Of a stretch of 64,000 bases of DNA, positions 16,340 through 59,821 are shown in pieces. Position numbers and translations under genes: made by a program. This DNA is from an uncultured delta proteobacterium (GTDB lineage Bacteria; Desulfobacterota; Syntrophia; Syntrophales; Smithellaceae), in contig CAWEQT010000001.1 in NCBI GenBank assembly GCA_963811325.1, forward strand, positions 1,301,859 through 1,365,858. Reading direction: 5' to 3'. Position 1 is the stretch's first letter; each line of letters starts with the position of its first letter. The notes beneath the pieces were generated by a model. The model was not told the origin of the DNA. It saw only the letters and a program-made list of their open reading frames with translations, and did not search any database.

Positions 16340-16356
16340 CGTAAATCATTTCGACA
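16340..16356. promoter_or_regulatory. 17-bp enhancer box
   Basis: CGTAAATCATTTCGACA, 128 nt from the -24 element. Confidence 0.65.
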
Positions 16357-16360
16357 CTTT

Positions 16361-16557
16361 TAATTGTTTATTGGGGTATATAGGGTCATATTTAGGCAGA
16401 AAACTATTATTTTACAATGTATTACAAGAGATTTCATTTTTGTAAAGAATTCCGACACATTAATTGTTTACTTGGGCATATATAGTCATATTTAGGCCTA
16501 AAACTATGATTTTATAATGTATTACAAGTGATTTCATTTTTGTAAAGTATTCCGACA
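16361..16557. repeat. Two-copy 100-bp tandem repeat, each unit ending in an enhancer box
   Basis: 16361-16457 vs 16461-16557, 11 mismatches in 97 nt by manual alignment; boxes TGTAAAGAATTCCGACA (16441) and TGTAAAGTATTCCGACA (16541). Confidence 0.9.
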
Positions 16558-16653
16558 TATTAAAAGATTAACATCAAACATTTTAATAAATAGATAGATT
16601 AACATCATAATTATATTATAAATATTAATGATAGGGAAAGGTAATACAAGGCT

Positions 16654-18160: not shown

Positions 18161-20443
18161 TTATTTAAGATTATTGAGCGTCGCCCTGGCTTCATCAGCG
18201 CCGGCGAAACTGGAATTTATCTTTAGAGCAGCACTGAGTTCTTTTTTAGCCAAGTCACGGTTGCCGTTTTTATAGTATGCCATGCCCAGGTGATATCTGA
18301 CCACGGGTTGATCGGGCATTTTATCCGCCGCTTCTTTCAAATATGTAATGGCAGTTCCGGGAACATTTTTCTTATAATATATCCATCCCAGCGTATCTGA
18401 AATATGAGCCTCTTCCGGCATCTGTTCCTTGGCTTTTTGCGCTAGATTCAAAGCTACATCGATGTTGCCGCCGTGTTCTGCATAAAGAAAAGCAAGATTA
18501 TTGGCCGCCGAAACAAAATTTGGATTTATCTTTAAAGCTTTTTCATAGTACTCCTGAGCCTTGCTGTAATTTTTTTCATTTTCATAGATCATCCCCAGCA
18601 TCATTAATGCCGAGAGCGTATCCGGTGCTTTTTCGACAGAAGCAAGACATTGATTTTTTGCCTTATCGGTTAGATTATGCCTCATATAAAAACCTGCCAA
18701 TAACATTTGCAGAGCGGGCAGGTTGGGATTGAGTTCAATTGCCTTCTTCATATTGCTTTCAGCGGAAGTCAAATCTTTTTTTGTCTCGTAGAGTGCTCCG
18801 AGCATGCTATAGAAAACAGGATTTTGCGGCACAATTTTAATTTGTTGCTGTACTCTTTCAATAGCTTTGTCCGTATTTTTTCTGCTCAAATAAACAGAAG
18901 CAATCAGTTGAAGCGCATTCACATTATCCGGCTGCAGAGATAATGCCTTTTCTAACCTTTCAAGCGCTTCTTTTTCCTTCTTTTGATATAGAAGAACTTT
19001 ACTCGATTGGATATAGCCTGCCGGATTACCCGGCGAATACTTGATTACAGCATCATATTCTCTGGCCGCACCGAGTATATCTCTTTTTGATAAATAGGCA
19101 TCACCCAGAAGAATACGTGCCTGGATATTGGAGGGATTGTCCTTTAATATAATATTGAGCTGGTCAATGGCTTCGGAAGAATTTCCTTCTCTAAAGTTAA
19201 TGTCCGCCATAAGAAGTCTTGGCTGTTCCCATTTTGGATTAAGCTTTATGGCTTCTCCCAATTCAGCTTTCGCCTGCTGAATGTTATGCTTACCTGAGTG
19301 AGCAAGAGCAGTTAAATAATGCGCCATAGCCGATTGCGGATTATTTTTAACATACTCCTGAAACAAATTTAGTGCCTGATCAAATTCATTCCGGCTCAAT
19401 AAAATTCTTCCCTTCAGGAGCAGGCCTTCCTGACTTTTGGGATTAATCTTCAGAATTTTTTCCGTCTGTTTCAAACCTTCGTCATATTTCTTTTCGTTTA
19501 TATAGAAATCGGCCAGCCTTGCTATAACACTGATATTCTCCGAATCCTGACTCAATGCTTTTTTGAAATATGATTCTGCTTTATCTTTTTCCCCTTCGAG
19601 CAAATAGAAATCGCCAAGATGAATTTTTAAATTGGCATTTTGGGGTGTAATTTCAATTCCTTTCAAAAATTGTTTTTCCGCATCATCTCGTTTGTTGATG
19701 ATTGTATAAAAATTACCAAGCTGCATAAAACTTCTTGCATCATTAGGGGCAATTTTTGTTGCTTCGATATATTCACGTTCAGCCAATTCTTTGTTTCCTG
19801 ACCGTAAATAAAATTCAGCAAGGGCGAACCGTCCCCGCAATGACTTTTCATCAGCTTTTACGGCAGCTTTGAGCATTTCTTCGGCGCTGGATAAATCTTT
19901 TTTGATTATATAAAGGTTGGCAAGATGAAGATATGCCTCCGGTTTGTTTTCTCCTTCAACTGCCTTTTTACCCTCGTTGATCGCCTCATCCAGATTTTTT
20001 TCCATGAGATAAATGTTGCTCAAAAGCATATGACCCAGAGAATTTTTTGCATCTTTGGCTAAAATCAATTCGGCCTGTTCTCTGGCCTTCTTGGTATCTC
20101 CGGACATAAGGTACAACACGCCTAACTGATTACGGGCTTCCACCATATCAGGATTTATTTCTACTGCTTTGGTCAGAACGACATATCCTTCCCTCATCAT
20201 CCCCATTTTCAAATAGGCCATTCCCAGTTTGTAGTAAGCTTTCGAATATTTGGGTTCCAACTTGATTATATTTTTATATTCAATAATAGCTTCTTTAAGC
20301 TTATTTTCTGAAAAGTATGTCTCCCCTTTCTTCCAGTGCCGCTCAATCCTTGACTCTTTGGAACATCCGGAAAACAAGATAAGAAAAGCGATAACCGATA
20401 AGGTGCAAATCGCGACATACATCCTTCTTTTTTCTAAATTCAT
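18161..20443 (-). CDS. prsT: PEP-CTERM system TPR-repeat lipoprotein (PrsT-like)
   Basis: Lipobox LFSGC, TPR repeats throughout, C-terminal AANNLAFLYA...DTLGWIYY...YHLGMAY typical of PrsT, locus context. Confidence 0.82.
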   Translation of the reverse strand: MNLEKRRMYVAICTLSVIAFLILFSGCSKESRIERHWKKGETYFSENKLKEAIIEYKNIIKLEPKYSKAYYKLGMAYLKMGMMREGYVVLTKAVEINPDMVEARNQLGVLYLMSGDTKKAREQAELILAKDAKNSLGHMLLSNIYLMEKNLDEAINEGKKAVEGENKPEAYLHLANLYIIKKDLSSAEEMLKAAVKADEKSLRGRFALAEFYLRSGNKELAEREYIEATKIAPNDARSFMQLGNFYTIINKRDDAEKQFLKGIEITPQNANLKIHLGDFYLLEGEKDKAESYFKKALSQDSENISVIARLADFYINEKKYDEGLKQTEKILKINPKSQEGLLLKGRILLSRNEFDQALNLFQEYVKNNPQSAMAHYLTALAHSGKHNIQQAKAELGEAIKLNPKWEQPRLLMADINFREGNSSEAIDQLNIILKDNPSNIQARILLGDAYLSKRDILGAAREYDAVIKYSPGNPAGYIQSSKVLLYQKKEKEALERLEKALSLQPDNVNALQLIASVYLSRKNTDKAIERVQQQIKIVPQNPVFYSMLGALYETKKDLTSAESNMKKAIELNPNLPALQMLLAGFYMRHNLTDKAKNQCLASVEKAPDTLSALMMLGMIYENEKNYSKAQEYYEKALKINPNFVSAANNLAFLYAEHGGNIDVALNLAQKAKEQMPEEAHISDTLGWIYYKKNVPGTAITYLKEAADKMPDQPVVRYHLGMAYYKNGNRDLAKKELSAALKINSSFAGADEARATLNNLK

Positions 20444-28583: not shown

Positions 28584-29056
28584 ACCATGTATGCATATCA
28601 GATGACGTGAAGCTCGGAAAAGATGTAAAACTTTCCAAGTTTATCAATCTTTATGGCTGCTGTGTTGGTGATAATACAAAAATCGGGGCTTTTGTTGAGA
28701 TTCAAAAGAACGCCTTCATTGGCAAAAACTGTAAAATATCGAGCCACACTTTCATCTGTGAAGGAGTAACCATTGAAGATAATGTTTTCATCGGACATAA
28801 TGTAGCTTTTATTAATGATTCTTTTCCACGGGCCACTGCAAAAGACGGGAAATTGCAGACGGAAGCCGATTGGAAAGTAGAGCCGACTCTTGTAAAGAAA
28901 GGAGCATCAATAGGTTCCGGCTCAACTATTCTCCCCAATATAGTCATTGGCGAGAATGCTATCATCGGCGCCGGCAGTGTGGTCACAAAAAATGTGCCGC
29001 CCGATACGATTGTCGTCGGTAATCCGGCAAAAACACTAAGAAAGGTCGACAGATAA
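28580..29056 (+). CDS. Hexapeptide-repeat N-acetyltransferase (WbpD-like)
   Basis: IGAFVEIQ, ISSHTFICEGV, IGAGSVVTKNVP...VGNPA. Confidence 0.88.
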   Translation: MNHVCISDDVKLGKDVKLSKFINLYGCCVGDNTKIGAFVEIQKNAFIGKNCKISSHTFICEGVTIEDNVFIGHNVAFINDSFPRATAKDGKLQTEADWKVEPTLVKKGASIGSGSTILPNIVIGENAIIGAGSVVTKNVPPDTIVVGNPAKTLRKVDR

Positions 29057-29059
29057 AAA

Positions 29060-30163
29060 ATGAACGTTCCATTTCTGGATTTAAAGACTCAATACAAAAG
29101 TATCAAAGATGAAATTAATACGGCAATTAACGAAGTTATGGAAAACACAGCTTTTGCCGGAGGACCTTTTGTGGCCAAATTCGAACAGGAATTTGCCAAA
29201 TTTTGTAATTGCAAGCATGCCGTGGGCGTCGGAAACGGCACGGATGCTCTGTGGCTGAGCCTGATTGCGCTAGGGGTCGGACGAGACGCAGAAGTCATTA
29301 CCGTGCCTAATACTTTTATCGCCACCGCCGAAGCAATATCGCTTGTCGGCGCAATCCCGGTCTTTGTCGACATCGATGAAAAAACAAATAATATGAATCC
29401 TTCTTTGCTGGAAGCGGCAATAACTAAAAAGACCAGAGCCATCATCCCCGTTCATTTGTTCGGACAGTCTGCGGATATGGACACCATTATGGATATTGCC
29501 AAAAAGCACGGGCTGTATGTAATTGAAGACGCCTGCCAGGCGCATGGCTCCGAATATAAAGGAAAGAAAACAGGTTCCATGGGACATACCGGCTGTTTCA
29601 GTTTTTATCCCGGTAAAAATCTGGGTGCTTATGGTGAAGGCGGTGCAGTTGTGACCAATGACGATGCGCTGGCTGCAAATATGAGAATGTTCCGTGATCA
29701 CGGCCAAGCTAAAAAGTATTATCATGGCATCATCGGCTGGAACGCCAGACTCGATGGCATCCAGGGTGCCATACTTAACGTTAAATTAAAATATCTGCCA
29801 GCCTGGAATGATTCCCGCCGGAAGCACGCCAAAGATTACACAAGAGGGCTTTCCGCAGTGAAGGAGGTTATCGTTCCGCAGGAAGCAGACTACGCCAGGC
29901 ACATCTATCATATTTACGCTATTCGAGTGAAAGACAGGGACAAGCTCATGGCTTACCTGACTGAAAAAGGAATCGCCTGCGGCATTCATTATCCCGTGCC
30001 TATTCATCTGCAGGATGCGTATAACTTCCTCAAAAAAGGCAAAGGCAGTTTCCCCGTCGCCGAAAAATGCGCGGAACAATACCTCTCTCTGCCGATGTTT
30101 GCCGAACTGTCAGACGAACAGGTCACTTATGTCGTCGAACAAATCAAAGCATATTATGCATGA
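29060..30163 (+). CDS. DegT/DnrJ/EryC1/StrS aminotransferase (WbpE-like)
   Basis: GNGTDAL, IPVHLFGQ, IEDACQAHG, SFYPGKNLGAYGEGG, NARLD. Confidence 0.93.
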   Translation: MNVPFLDLKTQYKSIKDEINTAINEVMENTAFAGGPFVAKFEQEFAKFCNCKHAVGVGNGTDALWLSLIALGVGRDAEVITVPNTFIATAEAISLVGAIPVFVDIDEKTNNMNPSLLEAAITKKTRAIIPVHLFGQSADMDTIMDIAKKHGLYVIEDACQAHGSEYKGKKTGSMGHTGCFSFYPGKNLGAYGEGGAVVTNDDALAANMRMFRDHGQAKKYYHGIIGWNARLDGIQGAILNVKLKYLPAWNDSRRKHAKDYTRGLSAVKEVIVPQEADYARHIYHIYAIRVKDRDKLMAYLTEKGIACGIHYPVPIHLQDAYNFLKKGKGSFPVAEKCAEQYLSLPMFAELSDEQVTYVVEQIKAYYA

Positions 30164-31193
30164 GCCGGAGCTCATCAATCCGTTAGAACAAGAAAACTGG
30201 AATAACCTGCTTATCTCCAAGCCGGGTTATTCCTTTTGTCATACCTCCAACTGGGCTGCCGTTCTGAGCAAATCATACAACTACAAGCCTTTCTACCTGT
30301 GTACCAGAAAAGAAAACACGTTTATCAGCCTTCTGCCGGTGATGGAAATCAATAGCGCCCTCACCGGTAGAAGAGGCGTTTGCCTGCCTTTCACTGACAT
30401 GTGTGAACCGATTGCCAAAAATGCGCAACAGTTTCAGGAATTGTTTGATCAGGCGGTCGTTATGGGTAGAAAGCGAAAATGGAAGTATATGGAAATTCGC
30501 GGAGGAGAAAAATACTTATCTGCAGAAAAGCCGTCACAATCATTTTTTGGTCATACACTGGATTTGAGTTGCGGGCAGCAGCAGCTATTTTCCAATCTGC
30601 GCAATTCCACCAGACGAAACATAAAAAAAGCGCAAAATGAAAAGGTGGAAGTCAGCATATCCAATTCACTAACCGCTGTGAAGGACTTTTACCGGCTCAA
30701 TGCCATGACCAGAAAAAAACACGGACTTCCGCCGCAGCCATACAAATTTTTTAAGCATCTATACGATCAAGTGATCGCCAGAGACATGGGTTTTGTCGCC
30801 ACCGCATCACTGCACGGTCAAGCCATCGCCGCGAATGTTTATTTAAATTTTGGAAAGGAAGTCATTTACAAATATGGATCATCGGATAAAGCATTCCAGC
30901 ATCTGAGAGCAAATAACCTGGTAATGTGGGAAGCCATCAAATGGAGTTGTGAGAGAAGATTCCAAAGCCTCTCTTTTGGCCGGACAGAACAGGGGAATGA
31001 AGGGTTAATGCAGTTCAAAGCAGGATGGGGCGTCAAACCATATCAGATTTATTATTACAGGTATGACTTACGGAAAAATGTTTTTACCTCAGATTCTTCA
31101 GATATCAATCCTTTGTTTAACAAAATATTTTCAAAACTACCCATCCCTCTTTTAAATATTCTGGGCAGAATACTTTATCGCCACATGGGATGA
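30156..31193 (+). CDS. FemAB-like GNAT family protein
   Basis: STRRNIKKA, IYKYGSS, ANNLVMWEAIKW, FGRT, GLMQFKAGWG; ATG at 30156 overlaps the upstream stop. Confidence 0.8.
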   Translation: MHEPELINPLEQENWNNLLISKPGYSFCHTSNWAAVLSKSYNYKPFYLCTRKENTFISLLPVMEINSALTGRRGVCLPFTDMCEPIAKNAQQFQELFDQAVVMGRKRKWKYMEIRGGEKYLSAEKPSQSFFGHTLDLSCGQQQLFSNLRNSTRRNIKKAQNEKVEVSISNSLTAVKDFYRLNAMTRKKHGLPPQPYKFFKHLYDQVIARDMGFVATASLHGQAIAANVYLNFGKEVIYKYGSSDKAFQHLRANNLVMWEAIKWSCERRFQSLSFGRTEQGNEGLMQFKAGWGVKPYQIYYYRYDLRKNVFTSDSSDINPLFNKIFSKLPIPLLNILGRILYRHMG

Positions 31194-31333
31194 TAAAAAG
31201 TGTTTTTGTCCTTATAATACTTGCAATTTATTAGACAATAGTCTAATAAATTCAGATTAATTGTCTATTATTGTTCCAAATTGTAAGTTATTTGCCCCCC
31301 TCGGATACCTCTATGTAACCGAGAGGGCGGAGC

Positions 31334-31368
31334 TGAATCTTGAACATTGCCCCTTTAGCCTTGAACCT
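31334..31368 (+). repeat. Phased heptamer array A
   Basis: TGAATCT TGAACAT TGCCCCT TTAGCCT TGAACCT, then degenerate units. Confidence 0.85.
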
Positions 31369-31522
31369 TTACTTGAACTGCCCCCCGTTAGGGCGAAGTC
31401 GGAGCATTTCCGAGGGGACACGCAAAGTACATAATAACGGGAAAATTAATTGCGACACAGTCTCTTCGCCAGTATGACATAATTGCTGTTTTTATACAGT
31501 TATTTAAAGGTCCCAATAAAAT

Positions 31523-33619
31523 ATGAATTCAAGTAAAAACTATTACTATTTTTTAAAAACTTTTATGCCGCGTCAGCTACAGATTTATCTGCGTAGAAAG
31601 TTTATAAATCGAAAAATTTTACTAAATAAAAATATATGGCCAATTGATAAAAAAGCTGTAACGTCGCCGGAGGACTGGCAGGGCTGGCCTGATGGTAAAA
31701 AGTTTGCATTTGTTTTGACACACGATGTAGAAACAGAAAAAGGATTAAATAAATGTCGTGAATTGATGAATATCGATGAAAAATTTGGTTTCCGGTCTTC
31801 TTTTAACTTTGTCACCGGAGATTATCAAATCCCTGAAGAGCTGCTAAATGAACTTCAGACGCGCGGTTTTGAAATAGGTATTCATGGTCTGCATCACGAC
31901 GGCAATATTTTCCGTTCAAGGAAAGTATTTGCAGAACACGCGGCACAGATCAACCAGACGCTGAAAAAATGGAATTCCGCTGGTTTCCGCAGCCCCAGCA
32001 TGTATCATAACCTGGATTGGCTGCATGATCTGAATATTAAATATGACGCCTCCACCTTTGACACAGACCCGTTCGAGCCCCAGCCGGACGGCATGGGAAC
32101 CATCTTCCCCTTCTGGATCGAGGGGAAAAACGGAAAGCGTGGTTATGTGGAACTGCCCTATACCCTTCCCCAGGATTTTTTGTTATTTATCTTAATGCAG
32201 CATGAAAATATCGACATTTGGAAAACAAAGCTTGATTGGATCGTCAAACAGAGCGGCATGGCCTTATTGATCACACATCCCGACTACATAAATTTCGCGA
32301 ACAACAAATTAAAAGAAAACGAATATCCAGTAAAATATTACGCAGAATTTCTCCAGTACATTAAAACAAAATACGAAGGCCAGTATTGGCAATCCCTGCC
32401 AAGAGATATGGCTCATTTTTGGTCAACCAACTTCAGAAATAAAAAAAATATTACCAGAAAACCAAAACATATTTGTATGCTCGCTTATTCATTTTACGAA
32501 TCAGACAACAGAATCATGCGTTACGCCGATGCACTGACCGAACGGGGCGACACGGTCGATATTATCGCATTAAAGAGTGAAGGTAACCCACCATATGAAA
32601 AGATCAGCAATGTCAACATTTATCGAGTACAAAAACGGATGATCAATGAAAAAAATCAATTAACATATCTGACGAAACTAGTGATATTTCTTATCAAGTC
32701 CTTTGCATTTATCACAAAAAAACATCTGCAACATCCATACGATATCGTCCACGTGCATTCCGTACCGGATTTTGAAGTTTTTGCGGCACTGATACCGAAA
32801 CTACAAGGCAGCTCAATCATACTGGATGTTCACGATATCGTACCGGAGTTTTATGCCAGCAAATTTTCCGGTAATAAAGACAGCTTTTTTTTCAAAGCTT
32901 TGGTTAAAATTGAACGGCTTTCGATTAAATTCTCTGACCATGTTATTATTTCCAACCATCTGTGGCATAAAACGCTAACATCCCGCTCCCTAAATGAAAG
33001 TAAATGCACCACCATAATGAATTATCCCGATGAGGCCATTTTTTATCAGCGGCCAAGAACCAGACACGATGACAAATTTATCATGCTTTACCCCGGGACA
33101 CTTGGTTGGCATCAAGGATTGGATATCGCCATTAAAGCATTCGCAAAAATAAAAGACCAGGCGCCACATGCTGAATTTCATATTTACGGTCGTGGATCCG
33201 AAAGAAATAAGCTGACCGGACTCATCGCAGAACTTCATCTGGATAACAAAGTTTTCATCAAAGATATAATGCCCATCAATGAAATAGCCGAAGTCATGGC
33301 CAATGCCGATCTGGGTATTGTGCCCAAGAAAAACGATCCTTTCGGCGGAGAAGCCTTCAGCACCAAAACACTTGAATTCATGTCTTTGGGCATACCCGTG
33401 ATTGTCTCAAAAACGAAAATAGATAATTATTATTTTAACGATTCAGTCGTAAAATTCTTCAATCCGGATGATGTGAATGATTTAGCACAGTCCATGATCA
33501 CAATGCTGAAGAACAAGGAACAACGGGACACACTCCGGGATAACGCGTTTTGCTTTGTCGAAGATTATCGCTGGTCGAAAAAGAAAAATGAATATTTTGA
33601 TTTGGTTGATTCATTATAA
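31523..33619 (+). CDS. Polysaccharide-deacetylase-like domain fused to GT4 glycosyltransferase
   Basis: N-part LTHDVE, IGIHGLHHDG, GFRSPS, ELPYTLPQD; C-part LYPGTLGWHQGLD, ADLGIVPK, KTLEFMSLGIPVI. Confidence 0.85.
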   Translation: MNSSKNYYYFLKTFMPRQLQIYLRRKFINRKILLNKNIWPIDKKAVTSPEDWQGWPDGKKFAFVLTHDVETEKGLNKCRELMNIDEKFGFRSSFNFVTGDYQIPEELLNELQTRGFEIGIHGLHHDGNIFRSRKVFAEHAAQINQTLKKWNSAGFRSPSMYHNLDWLHDLNIKYDASTFDTDPFEPQPDGMGTIFPFWIEGKNGKRGYVELPYTLPQDFLLFILMQHENIDIWKTKLDWIVKQSGMALLITHPDYINFANNKLKENEYPVKYYAEFLQYIKTKYEGQYWQSLPRDMAHFWSTNFRNKKNITRKPKHICMLAYSFYESDNRIMRYADALTERGDTVDIIALKSEGNPPYEKISNVNIYRVQKRMINEKNQLTYLTKLVIFLIKSFAFITKKHLQHPYDIVHVHSVPDFEVFAALIPKLQGSSIILDVHDIVPEFYASKFSGNKDSFFFKALVKIERLSIKFSDHVIISNHLWHKTLTSRSLNESKCTTIMNYPDEAIFYQRPRTRHDDKFIMLYPGTLGWHQGLDIAIKAFAKIKDQAPHAEFHIYGRGSERNKLTGLIAELHLDNKVFIKDIMPINEIAEVMANADLGIVPKKNDPFGGEAFSTKTLEFMSLGIPVIVSKTKIDNYYFNDSVVKFFNPDDVNDLAQSMITMLKNKEQRDTLRDNAFCFVEDYRWSKKKNEYFDLVDSL

Positions 33620-33721
33620 CCTTTAACCTTTTTTCTTTGTCCTCCGCTGGCGCGTTTAGTCCGGCGTATGTCTGGAAGGGTGTCACACAGTGACGGAGGT
33701 GGACAAAGGACTTCCGGCTTT

Positions 33722-33770
33722 CTTTCCTTTATCCTTGCTCCTTGAACCTTTAGCCTTTAACCTTGAGCAT
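33722..33770 (+). repeat. Phased heptamer array B
   Basis: CTTTCCT TTATCCT TGCTCCT TGAACCT TTAGCCT TTAACCT TGAGCAT, ending 9 nt before the ATG at 33780. Confidence 0.88.
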
Positions 33771-33779
33771 TTTTCAGTC

Positions 33780-34613
33780 ATGATTAATTTTCGTCTGGAT
33801 CGTTTCGTAACACTTTATCTTTTCAGGTATATCACAAAAAAGCAAACATCAGCCGGAGATAAGCGAATACCCATTCTCATGTATCATAGTGTTTCGGATG
33901 AGAAAGAAAAATCGCATTCTTATTACCATGTGAACACATCACCAGCAGTTTTTGACACGCACATGCGTTACCTTTATGAAAACAATTATTCAGTCATCAA
34001 TCTTCAGGATTTAAAAAAAAATTTCGACACGAGAGATTCATCTAAATATGTTGTCATTACCTTTGATGATGGCTTTTATGATTTTTTTACAAACGCCGTC
34101 CCTATTTTAAAAAAATACAATTTTAGCGCCACTGTTTTTTTACCAACCGGATTTATTCATAATGAAAAATTATCTTTTAAAGGCAAAGAATGCATGACAT
34201 GGAATGAAGTTCGGCATTTGCAGAGCAAAGGCATCAACTTTGGTTCACATACCGTCACGCACCCGCAATTGAACAATTTAAGCGCAAAAGAAATTGAAAA
34301 TGAAATTAAGTTATCTAAGCAAAAGATTGAAGATGAAACAGGCATTATAGTAAAATCTTTTTCATACCCCTATGCCTTTCCCGAAGACAATGAATTTGGA
34401 ATTACTTTGAGAGCGCTGCTTAAAAAATGCGGTTATACAAATGGCGTTACAACAAAAATCGGCACCGCGAATAAAGGCGGTGACACTTTTTTTCAACCCA
34501 GACTACCGGTAAACACGGCTGATGATATTTTATTCTTTCGTGCAAAACTGCAAGGCGCATATGATTGGTTAAGCGTACCGCAAACATTCATTAAAAGCAT
34601 CAAAGGAAAATAA
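33780..34613 (+). CDS. Polysaccharide deacetylase (CE4)
   Basis: ILMYH, ITFDDG, FGSHTVTH, FSYPY. The track start at 33690 merely reads through the repeat array. Confidence 0.9.
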   Translation: MINFRLDRFVTLYLFRYITKKQTSAGDKRIPILMYHSVSDEKEKSHSYYHVNTSPAVFDTHMRYLYENNYSVINLQDLKKNFDTRDSSKYVVITFDDGFYDFFTNAVPILKKYNFSATVFLPTGFIHNEKLSFKGKECMTWNEVRHLQSKGINFGSHTVTHPQLNNLSAKEIENEIKLSKQKIEDETGIIVKSFSYPYAFPEDNEFGITLRALLKKCGYTNGVTTKIGTANKGGDTFFQPRLPVNTADDILFFRAKLQGAYDWLSVPQTFIKSIKGK

Positions 34614-34623
34614 AGGTTTAGTC

Positions 34624-35910
34624 ATGTTTAATGTATGTATCATGGGCGCTTCTCTGACTACCGGCAACATGGGCGTATCCGCATTGGCGGCATCACTGGT
34701 TAAACTCATCCTGACCGCCCGCCCGGACGCGTCATTTACTTTTTTCATTGCGGAACGTTCATCAAAACCACAGGAAATAGAATTATCAAGTAGAAAAATC
34801 AGCATCAAAATCGCCAATACAAGACTCTCACCTAAAGCCGCAGTTGGTGAGCATGTTTTTGTCATATTTCTTTTAGCATTGTTATATAAAATAAATGCCG
34901 CACAGTCTTTTAGAAACATGATCATAAAGTATAATTTGCAATTAAAAGCAATTGCCGAAGCCGATTTCATTGGTGATGTGCGCGGTGGAGATAGTTTTAG
35001 CGATATCTATGGCGTTAAGGGTTTTCTATTAGGATCAATACCAAGTATCATTACATTGCTCATAGGAAAAAAGCTTGTTCTTTTACCTCAAACATATGGG
35101 CCATATAAAAGCAGCATTTCTAAAATAATCGCCCGATACATTTTGACCCATGCGCATATTATACTGTCGCGCGACAGAGAAAGTATGGAACTTGTAAAAG
35201 ACATACTTGGCAAGAAAAGCCACAATAAAAAGATTATATTTTGCCCTGATGTCGCCTTTGCTCTTGATTCCATTTCACCTAAGGATGATGACATTCAACC
35301 TTTTATCAATACCGGGAAAGACAATCCTATAATCGGATTGAATATTAATGGTCTTTTATACAATGGCGGATATACACGCAACAACATGTTTAATCTCAGG
35401 GTGGATTATAAGCTGTTTGTACATAAACTGTCTGAAGAAATTCTGAATAAAACCAACGCCAATCTTCTGCTCATACCACACACATTTGCAGCTCATGGCC
35501 ACGTAGAAAGCGACCCTGATGCCTGCGCTGAAGTTTTTACGGCCTTAGCGCCAGTATATAAAGGCAGGATACAAATGATTGCCGGTGAATATGATCAGCA
35601 TACTATCAAAGGTATTATCGGGCGTTGTGACTTTTTTATCGGATCGAGGATGCATGCCTGCATTGCTGCTTTATCACAGAAAATTCCTACTGCTGCCGTC
35701 GCTTACAGTAAAAAATTCAAGGGGGTGTTTGACTCCATTGATGTAGGCAATCTTGTCATTGATGCCAGAGAAATGGAAACACAGGAAGCCGTCGACATGA
35801 TTGCAGCGATGTTTGATGACCGCGCGCAAATAGAAAAAATATTGCAGGTTCAGATTGACAACGCGCAAAGGCAGCAACTGGAAATCTTTTGGAAGATATT
35901 AACGCAGTGA
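34624..35910 (+). CDS. Polysaccharide pyruvyltransferase family protein (WcaK-like)
   Basis: GNMGVSAL, GGDSFSDIYG, PQTYGP, SRDRES, CPDVAF, GSRMHACIAAL. Confidence 0.85.
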   Translation: MFNVCIMGASLTTGNMGVSALAASLVKLILTARPDASFTFFIAERSSKPQEIELSSRKISIKIANTRLSPKAAVGEHVFVIFLLALLYKINAAQSFRNMIIKYNLQLKAIAEADFIGDVRGGDSFSDIYGVKGFLLGSIPSIITLLIGKKLVLLPQTYGPYKSSISKIIARYILTHAHIILSRDRESMELVKDILGKKSHNKKIIFCPDVAFALDSISPKDDDIQPFINTGKDNPIIGLNINGLLYNGGYTRNNMFNLRVDYKLFVHKLSEEILNKTNANLLLIPHTFAAHGHVESDPDACAEVFTALAPVYKGRIQMIAGEYDQHTIKGIIGRCDFFIGSRMHACIAALSQKIPTAAVAYSKKFKGVFDSIDVGNLVIDAREMETQEAVDMIAAMFDDRAQIEKILQVQIDNAQRQQLEIFWKILTQ

Positions 35911-35956
35911 CTTTCTCCGGCTGTCATTGGAGGAACACCCTGCACACCGTGGCAAT

Positions 35957-35998
35957 TTATCCTTTACCCTTGCACCTTGAGCTTTGTGCCTTTATCCT
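35957..35998 (+). repeat. Phased heptamer array C
   Basis: TTATCCT TTACCCT TGCACCT TGAGCTT TGTGCCT TTATCCT, ending 3 nt before the ATG at 36002. Confidence 0.88.
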
Positions 35999-36001
35999 CA
36001 T

Positions 36002-37246
36002 ATGAGAAGCATTAAGACAATAAGAGACGTAGTTGGCTGGGGGTTGTGCGTCGGATGCGGTGCTTGCCAGTATTTTTGCGGCAAGGATTCTATAGAGTTA
36101 AAAAATATTGAAACAATAGGCATCCGGCCAATATTCAAAAGAGCACAAGACGTAAATTATTCAGAATGCCTTAAGTTCTGTCCCGGCTATTCAATTGGCG
36201 CAACAAGATATTTACAAGACAACGAGCACGTAATATCCGATCCGTTAATCGGACCTGTATTGGAAATCTGGCAGGGCTATGCTATCGACAAAGACATTCG
36301 TTATAAAGCTTCATCAGGAGGAGCGCTTTCTGCCCTTGCTTCATATTGTTTAGAAAAAGAAAATATGGAATTCGTATTACATGTCGGCATGGATCAGGAT
36401 ACACCTTGGTATAATAAAACAGTCCAAAGCAAAAGCAAAGCCGATTTATTAGCACGAGCAGGTTCGCGCTACGCCCCTTCCTCACCATGTGAAGCTATGG
36501 CGCTTATTGAGGCAAGCTCACGGCCTTGCGTATTTATCGGCAAACCATGTGATGCCGCAGCCGTTTCCGCTCTTCGGAAGTATCGGCCCAAATTAGATAA
36601 AAACCTGGGACTTGTTTTAACGTTTTTTTGCGCTGGGCCGCCCTGCACAGCCGGAACTCTTTCTTTACTGGAAGAACTCCGTATAGAAAAGCAAACAGTG
36701 AATGAGATACGTTACAGAGGGAAAGGTTGGCCGGGTCATTTTCAAGTGTCACTTAATAACTGTACTGAATATAAAAAACTAACGTATGAAGAATCGTGGG
36801 GGAAATTGGTAAAACACCACCGGTCATTTCGCTGTAATCTTTGCCCCGATGGTTTGGGAGAACTAGCGGATATATCGTGCGGTGACGCCTGGCATTTATA
36901 TGACAAGCAGAAAGATGATTATGGGCAATCACTTGTACTGGCGCGCTCCGAACGGGGCCGCGAGATCCTGAATCGGGCGATGGAAAGTGGTTATTTGCAA
37001 TTAGAACCTTCAAAGCCGGCAGATGTCATAAGAGCGCAACCAATGACTGGCAGGCGCGCCGAGATTTTTGGGAGACTATTGGCAATGAAAACCTTATTTA
37101 TGCCTATACCCAAATTGGTAGGTTTCTCTCTTGTTAAAGCTTGGATGAAAAATCCAATAAAAATTAAAATTAAAACTTATCTAGGCACATTAAGACGTCT
37201 CCTTACTCGCGGCCTCTGGCATCAGAAACCGTTGAATCCGGCATAA
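36002..37246 (+). CDS. Coenzyme F420 hydrogenase beta-subunit-like Fe-S protein
   Basis: CVGCGAC...CP ferredoxin motif, SSGGALSAL, GSRYAP, FIGKPC, YRGKGWPG, CNLCPD, DISCGDAW. Confidence 0.85.
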   Translation: MRSIKTIRDVVGWGLCVGCGACQYFCGKDSIELKNIETIGIRPIFKRAQDVNYSECLKFCPGYSIGATRYLQDNEHVISDPLIGPVLEIWQGYAIDKDIRYKASSGGALSALASYCLEKENMEFVLHVGMDQDTPWYNKTVQSKSKADLLARAGSRYAPSSPCEAMALIEASSRPCVFIGKPCDAAAVSALRKYRPKLDKNLGLVLTFFCAGPPCTAGTLSLLEELRIEKQTVNEIRYRGKGWPGHFQVSLNNCTEYKKLTYEESWGKLVKHHRSFRCNLCPDGLGELADISCGDAWHLYDKQKDDYGQSLVLARSERGREILNRAMESGYLQLEPSKPADVIRAQPMTGRRAEIFGRLLAMKTLFMPIPKLVGFSLVKAWMKNPIKIKIKTYLGTLRRLLTRGLWHQKPLNPA

Positions 37247-55593: not shown

Positions 55594-55683
55594 GCCCGGT
55601 AGTTCAGCCACCTTATCCCCCTATGAAGACTTAGGTCTGTAACTTTGCGTCCCACCTTTTCAGATGGTTTGCCTTTTTCAAGC
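55594..55683 (-). ncRNA. c-di-GMP-I riboswitch aptamer, copy 3 (gene-proximal)
   Basis: P1 GCUUG/CGGGC, GGCAAACC, P2 with GAAA tetraloop, GGGACGCAAAG, P3 with CCUAA...UAAGG receptor. Confidence 0.9.
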
Positions 55684-55759
55684 TTTGGTTGTTATTACAC
55701 GCTCTTTTAAAATTTGTTATTTTGTATTGGCAGGATTGCTGGACGGATCTTTTCATGTT

Positions 55760-55849
55760 GCCCGGCAGTTCTGCCACCTTATCCACTTACGAAGACTTAG
55801 GTCAGTAACTTTGCGCCCCACCTTTTCAGATGGTTTGCCTTTTTCAAGC
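55760..55849 (-). ncRNA. c-di-GMP-I riboswitch aptamer, copy 2
   Basis: Same fold, 166 bp upstream; compensatory change in P3 relative to copy 3. Confidence 0.9.
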
Positions 55850-55925
55850 TTTGGTTGTTATTACACGCTCTTTTAAAATTTGTTATTTTGTATTGGCAGG
55901 ATTGCTGGACGGATCTTTTGATGTT

Positions 55926-56015
55926 GCCCGGCAGTTCTGCCACCTTATCCACTTACGAAGACTTAGGTCAGTAACTTTGCGCCCCACCTTTTCAAGTGGT
56001 TTGCCTTTTTCAAGC
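55926..56015 (-). ncRNA. c-di-GMP-I riboswitch aptamer, copy 1
   Basis: Same fold, a further 166 bp upstream; P2 variant CCACUU-GAAA-AGGUGG keeps pairing. Confidence 0.9.
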
Positions 56016-56157: not shown

Positions 56158-56185
56158 AAGAACAAGGTTCAAGGGGCAAGGTTCA
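56158..56185 (-). repeat. Phased heptamer array D
   Basis: Minus strand TGAACCT TGCCCCT TGAACCT TGTTCTT. Confidence 0.8.
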
Positions 56186-57500: not shown

Positions 57501-57535
57501 AGATTCAAGGGGCAAGCAACAAGGTTTAAGGCAAT
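57501..57535 (-). repeat. Phased heptamer array E, overlapping the ATPase stop codon
   Basis: Plus strand AGATTCA AGGGGCA AGCAACA AGGTTTA AGGCAAT. Confidence 0.75.
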
Positions 57536-58746
57536 TGGGCAAGCCACTGCCAGGCCGGCGAGATCAAAATTTTATGTGTTCCATTGGGTATAATCCGATA
57601 ACCATTGCCAGCCTCAATTAGCAAAACGGCGGGCACACCCAATCTGTTTTGAAATGCCAAAAGAGGTTTTGCAGGCTGTGAATCGGATAATTTTGCCTCA
57701 ATAAGCAGAAAAGGTTCGCCGCTGTTAGCAATCAAAAAATCAACCTCCCTCTTCTCTTTATCCCTTATGAAATGAAGAGAAAAGACGCCTGATCCCATGT
57801 CGTTCCATATGGTTACTGCTCGCAATAACTCACAGGCCACCATGTTTTCGAAACGTGTAGCAGGATCCTTGATCCTCGGGTAGTCATAAAGATAGCATTT
57901 CCGTTCTTTCTGAATAGCCCGGGCAACTTTGCCCGTCCAAGTTGGAATACTGAATGTCAGATAAAATCTTTCCAGAATATCAAGCCAGCTCCGCACAGTA
58001 TTGTAAGAAACCTTCAAGTTTTCCGCAAGTGAAGTCACGGAAAGCGGGCTGCCAATTTTTGACGGTAGAAGTGTATAAATTGTTTCTATATCCTGCACGG
58101 ATTTGATATCTGTTAAATCACGGATGTCTTCTCTGACTAGTTGCCGCGTATAGGTGTTAGTCCAACGCCGGTAAGTGGTCTCACGACCGGAAAGGTAAGG
58201 CTCGGGAAATCCGGATAAAATGGCAAGCTGTTGCCAGATGACCTTCAGACGTTCACTTTTCTTCATATTCAAATGCAAGGGGTCGCTCATGAACTCTTCA
58301 AAAGGCCTGTTCATGCCGCCCAGTTCTGCAATGGTAAAAGGAAAAAGATGAAAAAGATAATACCTGCCTGCCAGTGAATCACCGCCTTTCTGATAGATGT
58401 CAAGGCGTCCACTGCCGGAAATGAGAAATTTGAATTCGTCACTAAATTCATCATAAATGCCCTTCAGATAATTTTTCCAGTCTTTGTATTTATGAAGTTC
58501 ATCAAAAATGATCAGGGGCACGGAATTGTCTTTCCTGACAAGATGTGAAAAAAATCCAGGATCCTGAAGAAGATGCGTGCGGTTATTCGTTATATCCCAG
58601 TTCCAATAAAGACTATTGCTAAAAGATTCGGCAATAATCTTTGTAAGTGTCGTCTTACCTGACTGGCGGGGACCGGCCAAAAAAATCATCGCTTTGTCAT
58701 GAGACAATTCTTTCCACACACTAATATAAGGGGTTCGCTTTTTCAT
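57526..58746 (-). CDS. AAA+ ATPase with DUF4143 / PD-(D/E)xK-like C-terminus (COG1373 type)
   Basis: GPRQSGKTT, IIFDELH, SGS, SLAGR, GFPEPYL, RKCYLYD, FENMVACEL, EVDFLI...IEAK. Confidence 0.9.
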   Translation of the reverse strand: MKKRTPYISVWKELSHDKAMIFLAGPRQSGKTTLTKIIAESFSNSLYWNWDITNNRTHLLQDPGFFSHLVRKDNSVPLIIFDELHKYKDWKNYLKGIYDEFSDEFKFLISGSGRLDIYQKGGDSLAGRYYLFHLFPFTIAELGGMNRPFEEFMSDPLHLNMKKSERLKVIWQQLAILSGFPEPYLSGRETTYRRWTNTYTRQLVREDIRDLTDIKSVQDIETIYTLLPSKIGSPLSVTSLAENLKVSYNTVRSWLDILERFYLTFSIPTWTGKVARAIQKERKCYLYDYPRIKDPATRFENMVACELLRAVTIWNDMGSGVFSLHFIRDKEKREVDFLIANSGEPFLLIEAKLSDSQPAKPLLAFQNRLGVPAVLLIEAGNGYRIIPNGTHKILISPAWQWLAQLP

Positions 58747-58752
58747 ATGGCT

Positions 58753-58792
58753 ATTATTCAGTTAATTGAAAAATAGTCAAGACTATTTTTCA
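58753..58792 (-). promoter_or_regulatory. sigma70-like promoter with overlapping 12-bp perfect palindrome, probably leaderless
   Basis: TTGACT-N16-AATAAT ends 6 nt before the ATG; TGAAAAATAGTC-AA-GACTATTTTTCA at 58767-58792. Confidence 0.55.
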
Positions 58793-58817: not shown

Positions 58818-58866
58818 AGGGGCAAGGACAAAGGATAAAGGTTCAAGGATAAAGGATAAAGGAGAA
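58818..58866 (-). repeat. Phased heptamer array F
   Basis: Plus strand AGGGGCA AGGACAA AGGATAA AGGTTCA AGGATAA AGGATAA AGGAGAA. Confidence 0.9.
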
Positions 58867-58936
58867 AAGAAAATTCCATTAAAAAAGTGCTCGCTTTTTT
58901 CTATCTAATATATTAAATAATTACAATATCCTAAAG

Positions 58937-59821
58937 GTGAATATGAGCGAAAATTCTCTGGCTGAAAAAATCAAGGAACATCTTAACACTAGAAATATTG
59001 TTTTTCTTCTTTTTGCGGTTTTGGCATTGATCATGGCTTATACGTCGATCAAAGCGCTTTATTTCTCAAATAAAAGCGAATATTATTCGCATATCGCGCT
59101 TATTCCTCTGGTGAGCATTTATCTGATTTACATCAACCGCGAAGAAATTTTTGCAAAAGTAAATTATTTATTTGCTGTGGGAATTCTCGTTTTGCTTCTG
59201 GGCATAGCTCTGTTTCTGGGCGGAATTTTATGGGGTGCGCCGCTGGATCAAAACAATTACGCGTCTCTTATCGCCTTTTCTATCTTCATTTTCATAAACG
59301 GAGCTTTTATTCTTCTTTACGGTATGCAGGCTTACCGAAGCGCTTTGTTCCCTCTTCTCTTTTTGATTTTTATCGTTCCTATCCCCACGGTTCTCATGGA
59401 TAATATCATCCATTTTTTACAGGTCGGTTCCACGGAGTTTGTAAATCTGTTATTTCTGGCCTCGGGAACGCCGTTTATAAGAGATGGCTTTGTCTTTCAA
59501 TTACCAAATGTCAGTGTCGAAGTGGCTAAACAATGCAGTGGCATCCGGTCAGGCATGGCTATTTTTATTGTCGCCATTTTGGCCGGTTATATGTTTCTGA
59601 ACTCCTACTGGAAAATAATTTTTCTTACTATCTGCGCAGTATTGATCGCCATGTTAAAAAATGGTATCCGGATTTTTACGCTCTCATTATTAGGAAATTA
59701 TGTTGATCCGCGAATTCTTGCAAGCTCTCTGCACAGAGAAGGCGGCATACCTTTTTTTATTGTGGCGCTGCTGTTGTTGGCTCCAATACTGTTTTTTTTA
59801 AGAAGATCAGAAAAGAAGTAA
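58937..59821 (+). CDS. xrtA: Exosortase (XrtA type, no fused EpsI domain)
   Basis: 8 TM segments, YYSHIALIP, catalytic Cys VAKQCSGIRS, Arg NGIRI, His LHREGG. Confidence 0.9.
   Translation: MNMSENSLAEKIKEHLNTRNIVFLLFAVLALIMAYTSIKALYFSNKSEYYSHIALIPLVSIYLIYINREEIFAKVNYLFAVGILVLLLGIALFLGGILWGAPLDQNNYASLIAFSIFIFINGAFILLYGMQAYRSALFPLLFLIFIVPIPTVLMDNIIHFLQVGSTEFVNLLFLASGTPFIRDGFVFQLPNVSVEVAKQCSGIRSGMAIFIVAILAGYMFLNSYWKIIFLTICAVLIAMLKNGIRIFTLSLLGNYVDPRILASSLHREGGIPFFIVALLLLAPILFFLRRSEKK

Follow-up and report, generated by a model that had tools for sequence, protein, structure and literature searches.

Heptanucleotide arrays with a CCTT(G/T) core at gene junctions of a Smithella polysaccharide region, and their association with guest genes in relatives

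Described heptanucleotide repeats and related elements

Short tandemly repeated repetitive (STRR) heptanucleotides were reportedly described by Mazel in 1990 in heterocystous cyanobacteria. To our knowledge, heptanucleotide arrays (STRR and related) of cyanobacteria, Beggiatoaceae, Bacteroidota and Geobacter have been known for decades and are unexplained; nor do we know of any role for the very common PF05635 four-helix-bundle proteins outside diversity-generating retroelements. The REP/BIME elements of enterobacteria are abundant intergenic operon repeats, sometimes beside GC-rich hairpins, which can affect mRNA stability and recombination, and the stem of 23S rRNA intervening sequences (IVS) is processed by RNase III. 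As far as the summary of Mrazek 2007 in PMC4679880 goes, heptanucleotide long simple-sequence repeats form a wider class. For the TAACTGA direct repeats of marine Beggiatoaceae a translation role and recognition by S1, Csp or CsrA-like proteins have been proposed (PMC4679880), and the heptanucleotide families GGACCGG and MTYCTGA of Geobacter metallireducens have been proposed as regulatory elements (PMC2700814).

The arrays analysed here lie in a 64-kb stretch of DNA (the window) from a Smithella (Syntrophaceae), in an XrtA/PEP-CTERM polysaccharide region. Compared with the STRR, they were found to share the 7-nt period with head-to-tail units, the dispersal over many intergenic sites per genome, a patchy lineage-specific spread, copy-number change between strains and the lack of an established function. 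Near-identical units, as in the STRR, were not found; five positions are fixed here, and neighbouring units differ because the other two of the seven are free. The units of the Beggiatoaceae TAACTGA repeats are exact and number 2-6, whereas those in the window are degenerate, and the present arrays are also found in 5' leaders, at the 3' ends of genes and ahead of promoters, with a normal Shine-Dalgarno (SD) sequence after many of them. The Geobacter families are alike in having four or five tandem heptamers at many intergenic sites in a related phylum, but they have other sequences and a fixed copy number and are parts of larger conserved elements (PMC2700814). REP/BIME elements are likewise intergenic repeats inside operons, sometimes by GC-rich hairpins, but their units are palindromes of ~35 nt and not tandem heptamers. 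In the literature searched, a CCTT(G/T)-core repeat was not described for Syntrophaceae.

Two further systems bear on the relatives of the window, in which arrays enclose a PF05635 ORF. As in 23S rRNA IVS that carry such an ORF (PMC10053308), the relatives' ORF sits in the loop of a long inverted-repeat stem, and the same heptamer arms are present in a 23S IVS copy from Azospirillum; the relatives' cassettes, however, lie between protein-coding operon genes, and the window has solitary arrays only. Unlike the Avd gene of diversity-generating retroelements (PMC10053308), the ORF has no reverse transcriptase or template repeat nearby. In integrons, too, promoterless guest genes are joined at short elements whose orientation relative to transcription is fixed, but attC is a single imperfect palindrome with an adjacent IntI, whereas tandem direct repeats and no integrase are found here.

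Arrays of the window

A preliminary description had reported six arrays, A to F, with the consensus T[GT]ANCCT. On direct reading all six are present, together with a seventh, a mini-array at 33617, and that consensus is a rotation of the unit CCTT(G/T)NN (CCTTKNN), repeated head-to-tail with a period of 7 nt. The arrays and the predicted structures beside them are as follows.

31295..31417, + strand: GC-rich stems around array A, with a hairpin CCCCCCTCGG...CCGAGAGGG at 31295-31327 and the closing partner CCGAGGGG at 31410-31417
31334..31380, + strand: array A, ~6 units, three of which (31352-31372) have a perfect CCTT core; 5' leader of the GT4 glycosyltransferase gene (31523-33619)
33617..33645, + strand: mini-array, TAACCTTTAACCTT, with units TAACCTT TAACCTT TTTTCTT TGTCCTC, overlapping the GT4 gene stop codon
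33636..33709, + strand: 'B-core' GC-rich hairpin, between the mini-array and array B
33722..33770, + strand: array B, 6-7 units, after the GT4 gene and ahead of the polysaccharide deacetylase gene (ATG 33780)
35957..35998, + strand: array C, 5-6 units, separating the pyruvyl transferase gene from the FrhB-like gene (ATG 36002)
56158..56185, - strand: array D, 3-4 units, AAGG-type on the + strand, in a divergent intergenic region
57501..57550, - strand: array E, 4-6 units, AAGG-type on the + strand, overlapping the AAA_14/DUF4143 ATPase stop codon
58818..58872, - strand: array F, 6-9 units, AAGG-type on the + strand, between the divergent ATPase and exosortase genes

Arrays with at least three perfect in-phase CCTT cores number six in the window and 0.0 in shuffles which, with the direct reading, establishes that the reported arrays are real. 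All 17 matches to CCTTKNNCCTT in the window fall inside arrays (1.44 expected), and B and F were also detected by Tandem Repeats Finder (TRF), which is blind to the core. A logo of 229 units from TRF-detected period-7 arrays of Syntrophaceae loci gave C.95, C.95, T.94, T.96 and G.72/T.22, followed by two nearly free positions, core values that are inflated because strand and register were picked to maximise CCTT and arrays with fewer than three CCTT units were dropped. Positions 6-7 carry ~0.2-0.4 bits, and most units are unlike their neighbours in their own array. None of the seven sites lies within a coding body, the mini-array and E reaching only into stop codons, and the arrays are non-coding. 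The CCTT strand had been taken to be always the sense strand; this is so for A, B, C and E, but for D and F, in divergent intergenic regions, it is an orientation label only.

ATG 33780 follows the end of the last full unit of B at a distance of 12 nt, and ATG 36002 that of C at 6 nt; neither gap contains a GGAG-like motif. B and C fit a pre-start-codon type (forward, a few nucleotides from the start codon, no SD), and A, D, E and F are not; the proposal that arrays replace the SD holds for the former two but not in general, many arrays being followed by a normal GGAG. B is open in one frame only, which is joined to the deacetylase ORF; this frame also holds a GTG upstream, at 33690, preceded by GGAAGGG. 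C lies inside an 18-codon upstream ORF ending ATATGA on ATG 36002. Promoter-like sites were found at 31190-31218, upstream of array A, and downstream of D, where the site belongs to a triple c-di-GMP riboswitch leader; measured from the -35 element of a predicted promoter, D lies 54-74 nt and F 40-80 nt upstream, the promoter near F being that of the ATPase gene.

In the predicted fold array A occupies a loop closed by a 9-bp GC stem, and the module of hairpin, GGGCGGAGCTGNAT and array was found again in the relatives L132, L179 and L162. Copies of B-core occur at other loci of L127, L177, L178 and L179, with a compensatory change in the inner stem (GTCAC/GTGAC versus GTCCC/GGGAC), and B-core had no Rfam match. 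The solitary arrays themselves are predicted to be unstructured as RNA (z = +0.45 for B and +0.75 for C, versus shuffles). Rfam 15 gave no match at the arrays at the gathering threshold, and over 31150-36100 at E <= 5 the single match was a chance snoRNA.

Cassettes, guest genes and array turnover in relatives

Two further features of the window enter the comparison with its relatives.

29054..29062, + strand: empty Hexapep/DegT junction, at which relatives carry an AAGG array, a PF05635 ORF and a CCTT array
57526..58746, - strand: AAA_14/DUF4143 ATPase gene (Pfam), bracketed by E and F in direct orientation

In the window the Hexapep gene abuts the DegT gene, and in sister lineages an ORF of PF05635, the Avd-like, 23S-IVS-type four-helix-bundle family, is inserted exactly between them. 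Four lineages carry the ORF between these genes, and it is absent without a scar at window 29056/29060; most likely the window has lost a PF05635 cassette. The AAGG arm, ORF and CCTT arm of the cassette make up an inverted pair, with complementarity beyond the core and, in L158, a predicted closing stem of ~35 bp (z = -2.8). In five lineages and two genomic contexts the limits of the cassette coincide exactly with arrays, the ORF being enclosed by inverted arrays in L132, L148, L158, L162 and L164. L158 retains, between arrays, a PF05635 remnant with an internal deletion, and L007 has 'empty' inverted array pairs. Furthermore, a remnant segment between two inverted arrays is flipped in L158 relative to the near-identical L159, with flanks 97-99% identical, and this inversion shows that the arrays recombine. 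A profile search of six-frame ORFs and Pfam scans found no PF05635 ORF in the window, and therefore the link between arrays and cassette rests on the relatives, where the earlier guess of a co-occurring four-helix-bundle gene is borne out.

The ATPase of the window is likely to be a guest gene as well. A paralog in L164, 25% identical, is similarly bracketed by direct CCTT arrays at another junction, and the gene is absent beside the exosortase gene in the array-free relative L254. In L162 a nucleotidyltransferase module is flanked by arrays. The arrays that flank guest genes other than PF05635 are direct and not inverted.

Orthologous arrays keep their position and flanks while unit content and number change. 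The ortholog of A in L132 (6834-6861) has flanks 92-96% identical and different units; that of E in L127 has 12 units between conserved flanks, other strains having 4-8; and that of F in L127 has 11 different units beside a promoter flank that is 100% conserved. Among strains whose PF05635 protein is identical, 8, ~14, 16 or >40 units were counted downstream of it and 5 or 6 upstream, and therefore the argument that variation among units speaks against slippage fails. The place of array C in L132 holds only CCTTTATCCTC, two units compared with 6 in the window, so that C is an in-place expansion of a two-unit seed; since its added units are not copies of adjacent ones, plain slippage is insufficient. 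Within the species, B is identical in contigs L001 and L002 and C in L001-L006, which come from different samples; B is missing from four related species. The mini-array sits in a segment of 163 nt, in place of which L132, L134, L136 and L137 have 38 nt that include the final ~8 GT4 codons.

The distribution of the arrays is lineage-specific: the 64-kb window has 6 and the 6.3 kb of L162 have 8, compared with a single array in the 78.8 kb from four related species and none in the 383 kb surrounding distant ATPase homologs. CCTT heptamer arrays occur in many phyla. When 15 PF05635 genes on cyanobacterial, Bacteroidota and other plasmids were sampled, 12 had a period-7 signal (p7 of at least 20 of 28 within 120 nt, a level reached by 0.3% of control windows) on at least one side and 7 on both, and three more had weaker or period-8 repeats by eye. 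The flanking arrays are inverted in 8-10 of the 15 loci, the heptamer changes from genome to genome, and one sampled case is the Azospirillum 23S rRNA IVS with its heptamer arms. Among small ORFs adjoining CCTT arrays across phyla, only 1 of 49 is PF05635, a figure that counts against the cassette reading given below.

Origin and possible roles of the arrays

With a probability of about 0.5, the arrays are a slippage-prone, recombinogenic heptanucleotide satellite of the STRR or long simple-sequence repeat kind, tied to guest-gene cassettes and not an integron. The repeats are lineage-specific and non-coding, and of their seven positions the five of the core, CCTT(G/T), are constrained and the other two free; in Syntrophaceae the arrays bracket guest genes inserted into operons, and inverted arms can pair into a long stem enclosing the PF05635 ORF. 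The six arrays of the window may be solitary members of the cassette-arm family that arose at junctions through insertion, loss or gene conversion and were later remodelled by slippage, gene conversion among arrays being assumed for the non-copied new units of C. The CCTT orientation would persist in operons because the opposite strand would put tandem SD-like AAGG motifs in the mRNA. Any effect on the polysaccharide genes would be incidental, the arrays acting as an unstructured pyrimidine-rich spacer before start codons (B, C) or between promoters (D, F), and no dedicated integron-like recombinase need be involved. Against neutral slippage, the fixing of positions 1-5 while 6-7 are free implies a factor or process that reads CCTTK every 7 nt; against a single cassette-arm origin, the direct arrays round non-PF05635 guest genes are left unexplained.

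Alternatively, though this seems improbable, the heptamer arrays could be the defining terminal arms of widespread, undescribed selfish PF05635 cassettes, in which the protein or a partner would recognise the phase of the heptamers and bring about insertion, excision or removal at the RNA level. The upstream arm would then be purine-rich and SD-like and the downstream arm its complement; cassettes would enter operon junctions and 23S rRNA helices, and solitary arrays, the six of the window among them and perhaps many classical cyanobacterial STRR arrays, would be footprints or secondary targets. Two orphans, the heptamer arrays and PF05635, co-occur in several phyla with a fixed architecture of purine arm, ORF and complementary pyrimidine arm, and at operon junctions of Syntrophaceae the PF05635 unit shows gain, loss, decay and inversion. 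What was a descriptive puzzle thereby becomes open to testing, through protein-repeat binding, RNase III cutting of the stem and comparison of array count with PF05635 copy number.

It is unlikely that the arrays are periodic protein-binding tracks, on mRNA for an S1-, KH- or Csp-like or PF05635 protein, or on DNA, which modulate transcription of the adjacent genes or the start of their translation. For a track on DNA, the heptad repeats upstream of ctxAB provide a parallel. The Beggiatoaceae TAACTGA repeats are a further precedent (PMC4679880), and a five-base core kept at strict 7-nt phase with positions 6-7 free, the orientation bias inside operons, the abutment of B and C, predicted to be single-stranded, on SD-less start codons, and the placing of D and F 40-120 nt upstream of promoter-like sites would all fit such tracks. 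However, unit number and content vary freely between close relatives, whole arrays are absent at orthologous junctions of the same genes in four related species, ordinary SD sequences follow many arrays, the positions differ greatly (5' leader, intercistronic, 3' end, upstream of promoters) and a candidate binding protein was not identified.

The preliminary description had suggested an integron-like shuffling of cassettes, which in its present form would make the arrays cis-acting sites served by a dedicated enzyme encoded elsewhere, or by folded single strands; this is decidedly doubtful. In relatives a gene, the PF05635 ORF, is gained or lost exactly at arrays; three kinds of guest gene are bracketed by arrays, the L158/L159 inversion lies between inverted arrays, and a 90%-identical PF05635 ORF with its arrays was found in a different genomic context. 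Within the window B and C are not gene-content breakpoints, and other indels of the same operon lack arrays: the FrhB deletion in L132 used the CATTAAGAC repeat, and a UDP-glucose dehydrogenase indel is without arrays. Moreover, within a lineage the same PF05635 protein is always in the same context, and general recombination, or replication across the hairpin, would suffice for inversion and clean loss. No integrase or transposase was found in the window (Pfam/NCBIfam scans of most ORFs of at least 80 aa) or in the gene tables of the cassette loci examined. The solitary arrays are tandem repeats in direct orientation whose predicted folds are no better than those of shuffles, and an attC-like hairpin was therefore rejected for them. 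What stands of the suggestion is therefore the guest genes at arrays and the inversion, but not a recombinase in the window or an attC-like fold.

It is very unlikely that the arrays are phase-variation switches, in which one 7-nt unit, 7 not being a multiple of 3, would shift the frame of the upstream ORF (C) or an N-terminal extension (B) and switch polysaccharide genes: the deacetylase-joined open frame of B, the ORF around C that ends ATATGA on the start codon, strain-to-strain unit number changes at other arrays and the polysaccharide locus itself, surface polysaccharide loci being typical contingency loci, would suit this, but same-species contigs from different samples show no length change (C in L001-L006, B in L001-L002), non-identical units lower slippage, no frame relation of this sort exists for A, D, E or F, and an open frame has a one-in-three chance.

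The arrays also have practical consequences. They mislead gene callers, which started at GTG 33690 and so gave a 307-aa fusion product across array B, and they interrupt short-read assemblies, in which many contigs with exosortase or PF05635 genes stop at arrays.

Heptamer arrays and their positions

Six heptamer arrays were reported in the preliminary description, and direct reading of the sequence confirmed all six; the consensus given there, T[GT]ANCCT, is CCTT(G/T)NN in a shifted register on the pyrimidine strand. A seventh, short array is also present.

Array A, 31334-31380 (+): 5' leader of a GT4 glycosyltransferase gene, 3' of a promoter-like site
Short array (TAACCTTTAACCTT...), 33617-33645 (+): overlaps the stop codon of the gene preceding B
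Array B, 33722-33770 (+): intercistronic
Array C, 35957-35998 (+): intercistronic
Array D, 56158-56185 (-): divergent intergenic region, 54-74 nt upstream of the -35 of a promoter-like site
Array E, 57501-57550 (-): overlaps the stop codon of an AAA_14/DUF4143 ATPase gene
Array F, 58818-58872 (-): divergent intergenic region, 40-80 nt upstream of the -35 of a promoter-like site

Six arrays in the window have at least three perfect in-phase CCTT cores, compared to none in shuffled sequences. The two-unit pattern CCTTKNNCCTT matched 17 times, where 1.44 matches are expected; all 17 lie within arrays, and no stray two-unit seed was found elsewhere in the window. Arrays B and F were recovered by Tandem Repeats Finder without any knowledge of the core, and the CCTT core is present in 33 of 35 arrays of period 7 (or 14/21) that this program found in 13 Syntrophaceae loci. 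The logo built from 229 units gives C.95, C.95, T.94, T.96 and G.72/T.22, followed by two almost free positions, the core values being somewhat inflated because strand and register were picked to maximise CCTT.

The rule that the pyrimidine strand is the sense strand of the transcript holds for A, B, C and E; for D and F, located between divergent genes upstream of promoter-like sites, it describes orientation only. Counts of array orientation relative to genes rest on crude gene models, and many of the compared loci are orthologous and hence not independent.

The surrounding locus is of the XrtA/PEP-CTERM polysaccharide type, with PrsT, export and chain-length genes, an exosortase, a long glycosyltransferase/acyltransferase operon, a PrsK/PrsR-type kinase and a sigma-54 activator. 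It lies on a contig of 2.78 Mb, and the Lon protease encoded in the window groups with proteins labelled Smithella sp. The promoter-like site of the ATPase gene (TTGACT-16-AATAAT, 58753-58790, minus strand) ends 7 nt before the ATG, which suggests a leaderless mRNA; its -35 lies within a perfect palindrome, AAAAATAGTC-TT-GACTATTTTT, and the entire flank is 100% conserved in the compared contig L127.

Array turnover and gene content

Among contigs of the window's own species from different samples, array C is identical in six of six (L001-L006) and B in both contigs that reach it. Array A and its ortholog in L132, another compared locus, differ in their units between flanks that are 92-96% identical. 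L127 has 12 units in array E against 4-6 in the window, and in array F 11 different ones against 6-9, beside the 100% conserved promoter flank; further strains have yet other unit numbers in both. The array upstream of the PF05635 gene found in relatives (see below) has 5 or 6 units among the compared strains. It is clear from such differences between strains and species that units are frequently gained and lost. The variation of units within a kept phase had been taken to argue against slippage; this case fails on the array downstream of the PF05635 gene, where strains with an identical PF05635 protein carry 8, 16 or over 40 units and a 96%-identical lineage about 14.

L132 has just CCTTTATCCTC where the window has array C, and the four extra units of the window are all mutually different; array C is an in-place expansion. 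Unit variation is limited to positions 6-7. Plain slippage does not fully account for array turnover; the CCTTK phase could be kept by a motif reader or by unit exchange among arrays.

The window was compared for synteny with four related species. The expectation that arrays mark gene-content breakpoints was mostly not borne out within the window (B, C, the FrhB-like gene, UDP-glucose dehydrogenase), and was borne out in relatives by the PF05635 cassette. Array B is part of a 163-nt non-coding insert, which takes the place of 38 nt (among them the final eight codons of the upstream gene) and contains a GC-rich hairpin element also present at other loci in relatives. This element, TCCTCCG...GTCAC-NNN-GTGAC-GGAGGTGGA (window 33636-33709, L127:1682-1752, L177:1664-1711, and in L178 and L179), occurs at unrelated intergenic sites with one compensatory stem change and variable inserts; the window copy has no Rfam match. 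A heptamer array often lies next to it on the 3' side, in L177 an array of another family, (GTGAACT)n.

The FrhB-like gene 3' of array C has undergone an internal deletion in L132 via a CATTAAGAC direct repeat, not via the array. The deletion between the CATTAAGAC copies leaves a stub of about 95 nt (L132:11306-11400) of this FrhB/FdhB-like gene (window 36002-37246), which is absent in L134 and L136 and intact in L137. No arrays were found at the UDP-glucose dehydrogenase indel between the window and the four related species, and this comparison rules out arrays as breakpoints of either indel. In L254, an array-free relative, the exosortase gene is directly beside PrsT, with the export genes on the opposite side. 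The window has about 38 kb, with the entire polysaccharide operon and arrays A-F, between 18161-20443 and 58943-59821 (PrsT, exosortase). A large rearrangement lies between the two lineages.

Guest genes and PF05635 cassettes

In L132 a 118-aa PF05635 ORF, annotated as '23S rRNA intervening sequence protein', a four-helix bundle, lies exactly between the Hexapep and DegT genes that abut at 29056/29060 in the window. The insert consists of an AAGG array, the ORF and a CCTT array, plus a new SD, and the same arrangement of arrays and ORF occupies this junction in three further lineages. Two of the three, at about 71% nucleotide identity, are outgroups; the most likely history is therefore a clean loss of the cassette in the window lineage. 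A co-occurring four-helix-bundle gene or recombinase had been anticipated: the former exists as PF05635 ORFs between arrays in relatives, and neither a PF05635 gene nor an integrase or transposase was found in the 64-kb window by domain scans and a PF05635 profile search. PF05635 is kin to Avd of diversity-generating retroelements (PMC10053308).

The arms flanking PF05635 ORFs are complementary past the core, at 27 of 30 positions in locus L158 and as a perfect 16-mer in L132. The L158 cassette is predicted to fold with a closing stem of about 35 bp formed from both arrays (z = -2.8). Also present in L158 is a PF05635 remnant with an internal deletion, both arms still in place around it. Direct evidence of recombination between arrays comes from L159, a second genome from the same sample, in which the remnant is flipped between the same inverted arrays within flanks that are 97-99% identical. 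The flipped remnant measures 160 bp (L158:4724-4979 and L159:4758-5020, on two 5-Mb contigs). In the compared locus L007, 'empty' pairs (AAGG array, A5 or T5, CCTT array) are found at three gene junctions.

Direct CCTT arrays bracket guest genes of other kinds: the ATPase gene of the window (E and F), a 25%-identical paralog, which occupies a different junction in L164, and, in L162, a nucleotidyltransferase module. In the array-free L254, where the exosortase adjoins PrsT, the ATPase is missing. The arrays are not an attribute of this ATPase, as none of 73 homolog loci at 86% identity or less has one (383 kb); among 80 homolog loci, arrays are confined to those of the seven closest relatives (88% identity or more). 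That the Smithella PF05635 ORF moved recently was also considered and rejected, since an identical protein keeps one context within a lineage and a single 90%-identical copy is found elsewhere; this copy, with the same arms, lies between peptidase S24 and Y-family polymerase genes in a 5.2-Mb genome.

The arrays are lineage-specific: one small array was found in 78.8 kb from the four related species and none in the 383 kb around distant ATPase homologs. A one-genome-per-species scan for five CCTTKNN units gave matches in many phyla; among the matches listed, most are near-perfect microsatellites, and degenerate arrays are mainly from Syntrophaceae and other Desulfobacterota. PF05635 accounts for one of 49 small ORFs adjoining CCTT arrays across phyla, which rules out that all such arrays adjoin PF05635 genes and indicates that most are not cassette ends.

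The association is strong in the direction from gene to arrays, not from arrays to gene. A plasmid collection was searched with the Smithella-type PF05635 protein and the flanks of 15 matches were read; a period-7 signal (p7 of 20 or more out of 28, no more than 120 nt away) lies on at least one side in 12 of the 15 and on both sides in seven, compared to 8 of 2,790 control windows. Three loci with low p7 have repeats by eye: direct octamers in Gemmatirosa, inverted repeats of 7-8 nt in Picosynechococcus, and an array downstream in the first Nostoc PCC 7120 locus. The plasmid pairs are mostly inverted, with a purine arm 5' and its complement 3', and the heptamer is genome-specific: GGGAAAA, GGGAGTA, GGGAACA, GGGTGTA, CAGGTGA and GGAGTCA in cyanobacteria, AAGGTTC in Riemerella, and GAGGACA at a copy located within a 23S rRNA gene of Azospirillum. 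TGGAGTA heptamers occur in two further PF05635 cases, from Desulfobacterota, and ACAAGGA in a Flavobacteriales genome.

On plasmids of Pseudanabaena (L259), Anabaena 90 (L262) and Picosynechococcus (L271), PF05635 ORFs with tandem arrays lie between cas6 and cas4 or cmr2 and cmr3; the repeats are heptamers in two of these and about 7-8 nt in Picosynechococcus, and the Pseudanabaena arrays, (CTAAAAG)n and (CCAAAAG)n, are direct rather than inverted. Location of several PF05635 copies between cas genes agrees with PMC3936711. Very many metagenomic homologs of PF05635 and the exosortase are on contigs that barely exceed the gene, which fits short-read assemblies breaking at flanking arrays. The literature searched held no publication linking four-helix-bundle/IVS ORFs to heptamer arrays, or on Smithella/Syntrophus repeats.

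Nature of the arrays

The best-supported reading places the window arrays among STRR-type or long simple-sequence-repeat satellite DNA (background in PMC4679880), from which the unit differs by its unusual constrained core and two free positions. Such arrays would be slippage-prone and recombinogenic, and linked to guest genes that insert, decay and are lost, foremost PF05635 cassettes, whose inverted arms are the arrays. The purine arms bear SD-like cores (AAGG, GGAG, GGGA), which may in turn explain the pyrimidine orientation of solitary arrays inside operons. No evidence was seen that the arrays serve the polysaccharide genes in a dedicated role. Arrays B and C may, from predicted folding, keep the start region unstructured where an SD is lacking.

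Alternatively, these may be parts of a cassette system in which a factor reads the heptamer phase. The integron-like form of this idea in the preliminary description is not supported: domain scans found no integrase in the window, and the solitary arrays B and C are predicted to be unstructured. Structured RNA was rejected for B and C, which fold no better than shuffles; array A is predicted to lie within a loop closed by a GC stem, and the arrays match no known Rfam family. A phase switch is also possible, B being in frame with a GTG at 33690 and C lying in an upstream ORF that ends on the ATG, but population data give no support to frame-dependent switching, B being identical in L001-L002 and C in L001-L006. 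A coding repeat (B in the deacetylase frame, C in an 18-codon upstream ORF) is ruled out as a general reading by single 7-nt unit changes between strains, by one of three frames being open and by the extension being missing from orthologous proteins. Inspection by eye spoke against a sigma-54 promoter, as the TGGCA close to array C lacks a properly spaced GC element, and against CsrA (GGA) sites, as many purine-strand units are GGT.

Several further elements were seen in the window. The motif GTCGGAATWNTTTAC has six copies compared to 0.1 expected (16442, 16542 and 17320 on the minus strand; 56206, 57365 and 57475 on the plus strand), upstream of PEP-CTERM and PilZ genes and inside a 100-nt tandem repeat (16341-16563), two of them within 15-25 nt of arrays D and E; it is a candidate regulator site for the PEP-CTERM regulon. 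Three c-di-GMP-I riboswitch aptamers in tandem (55595-56015, minus strand; 76-78 bits each) fall within a tandem repeat of 166 nt, 5' of the gene for a 948-aa InlB B-repeat (Flg_new_2) protein (52689-55535, minus strand), and this gene carries a 246-nt tandem repeat of its own (52721-53631). The prfB (release factor 2) ORF (2884-3927, minus strand) matches its family profile from position 22 on only; a programmed +1 frameshift near the start is usual for prfB and fits this late match. Finally, a match to the Rfam pan motif lies at 667-737 on the minus strand (44.8 bits, gathering score 36.2).
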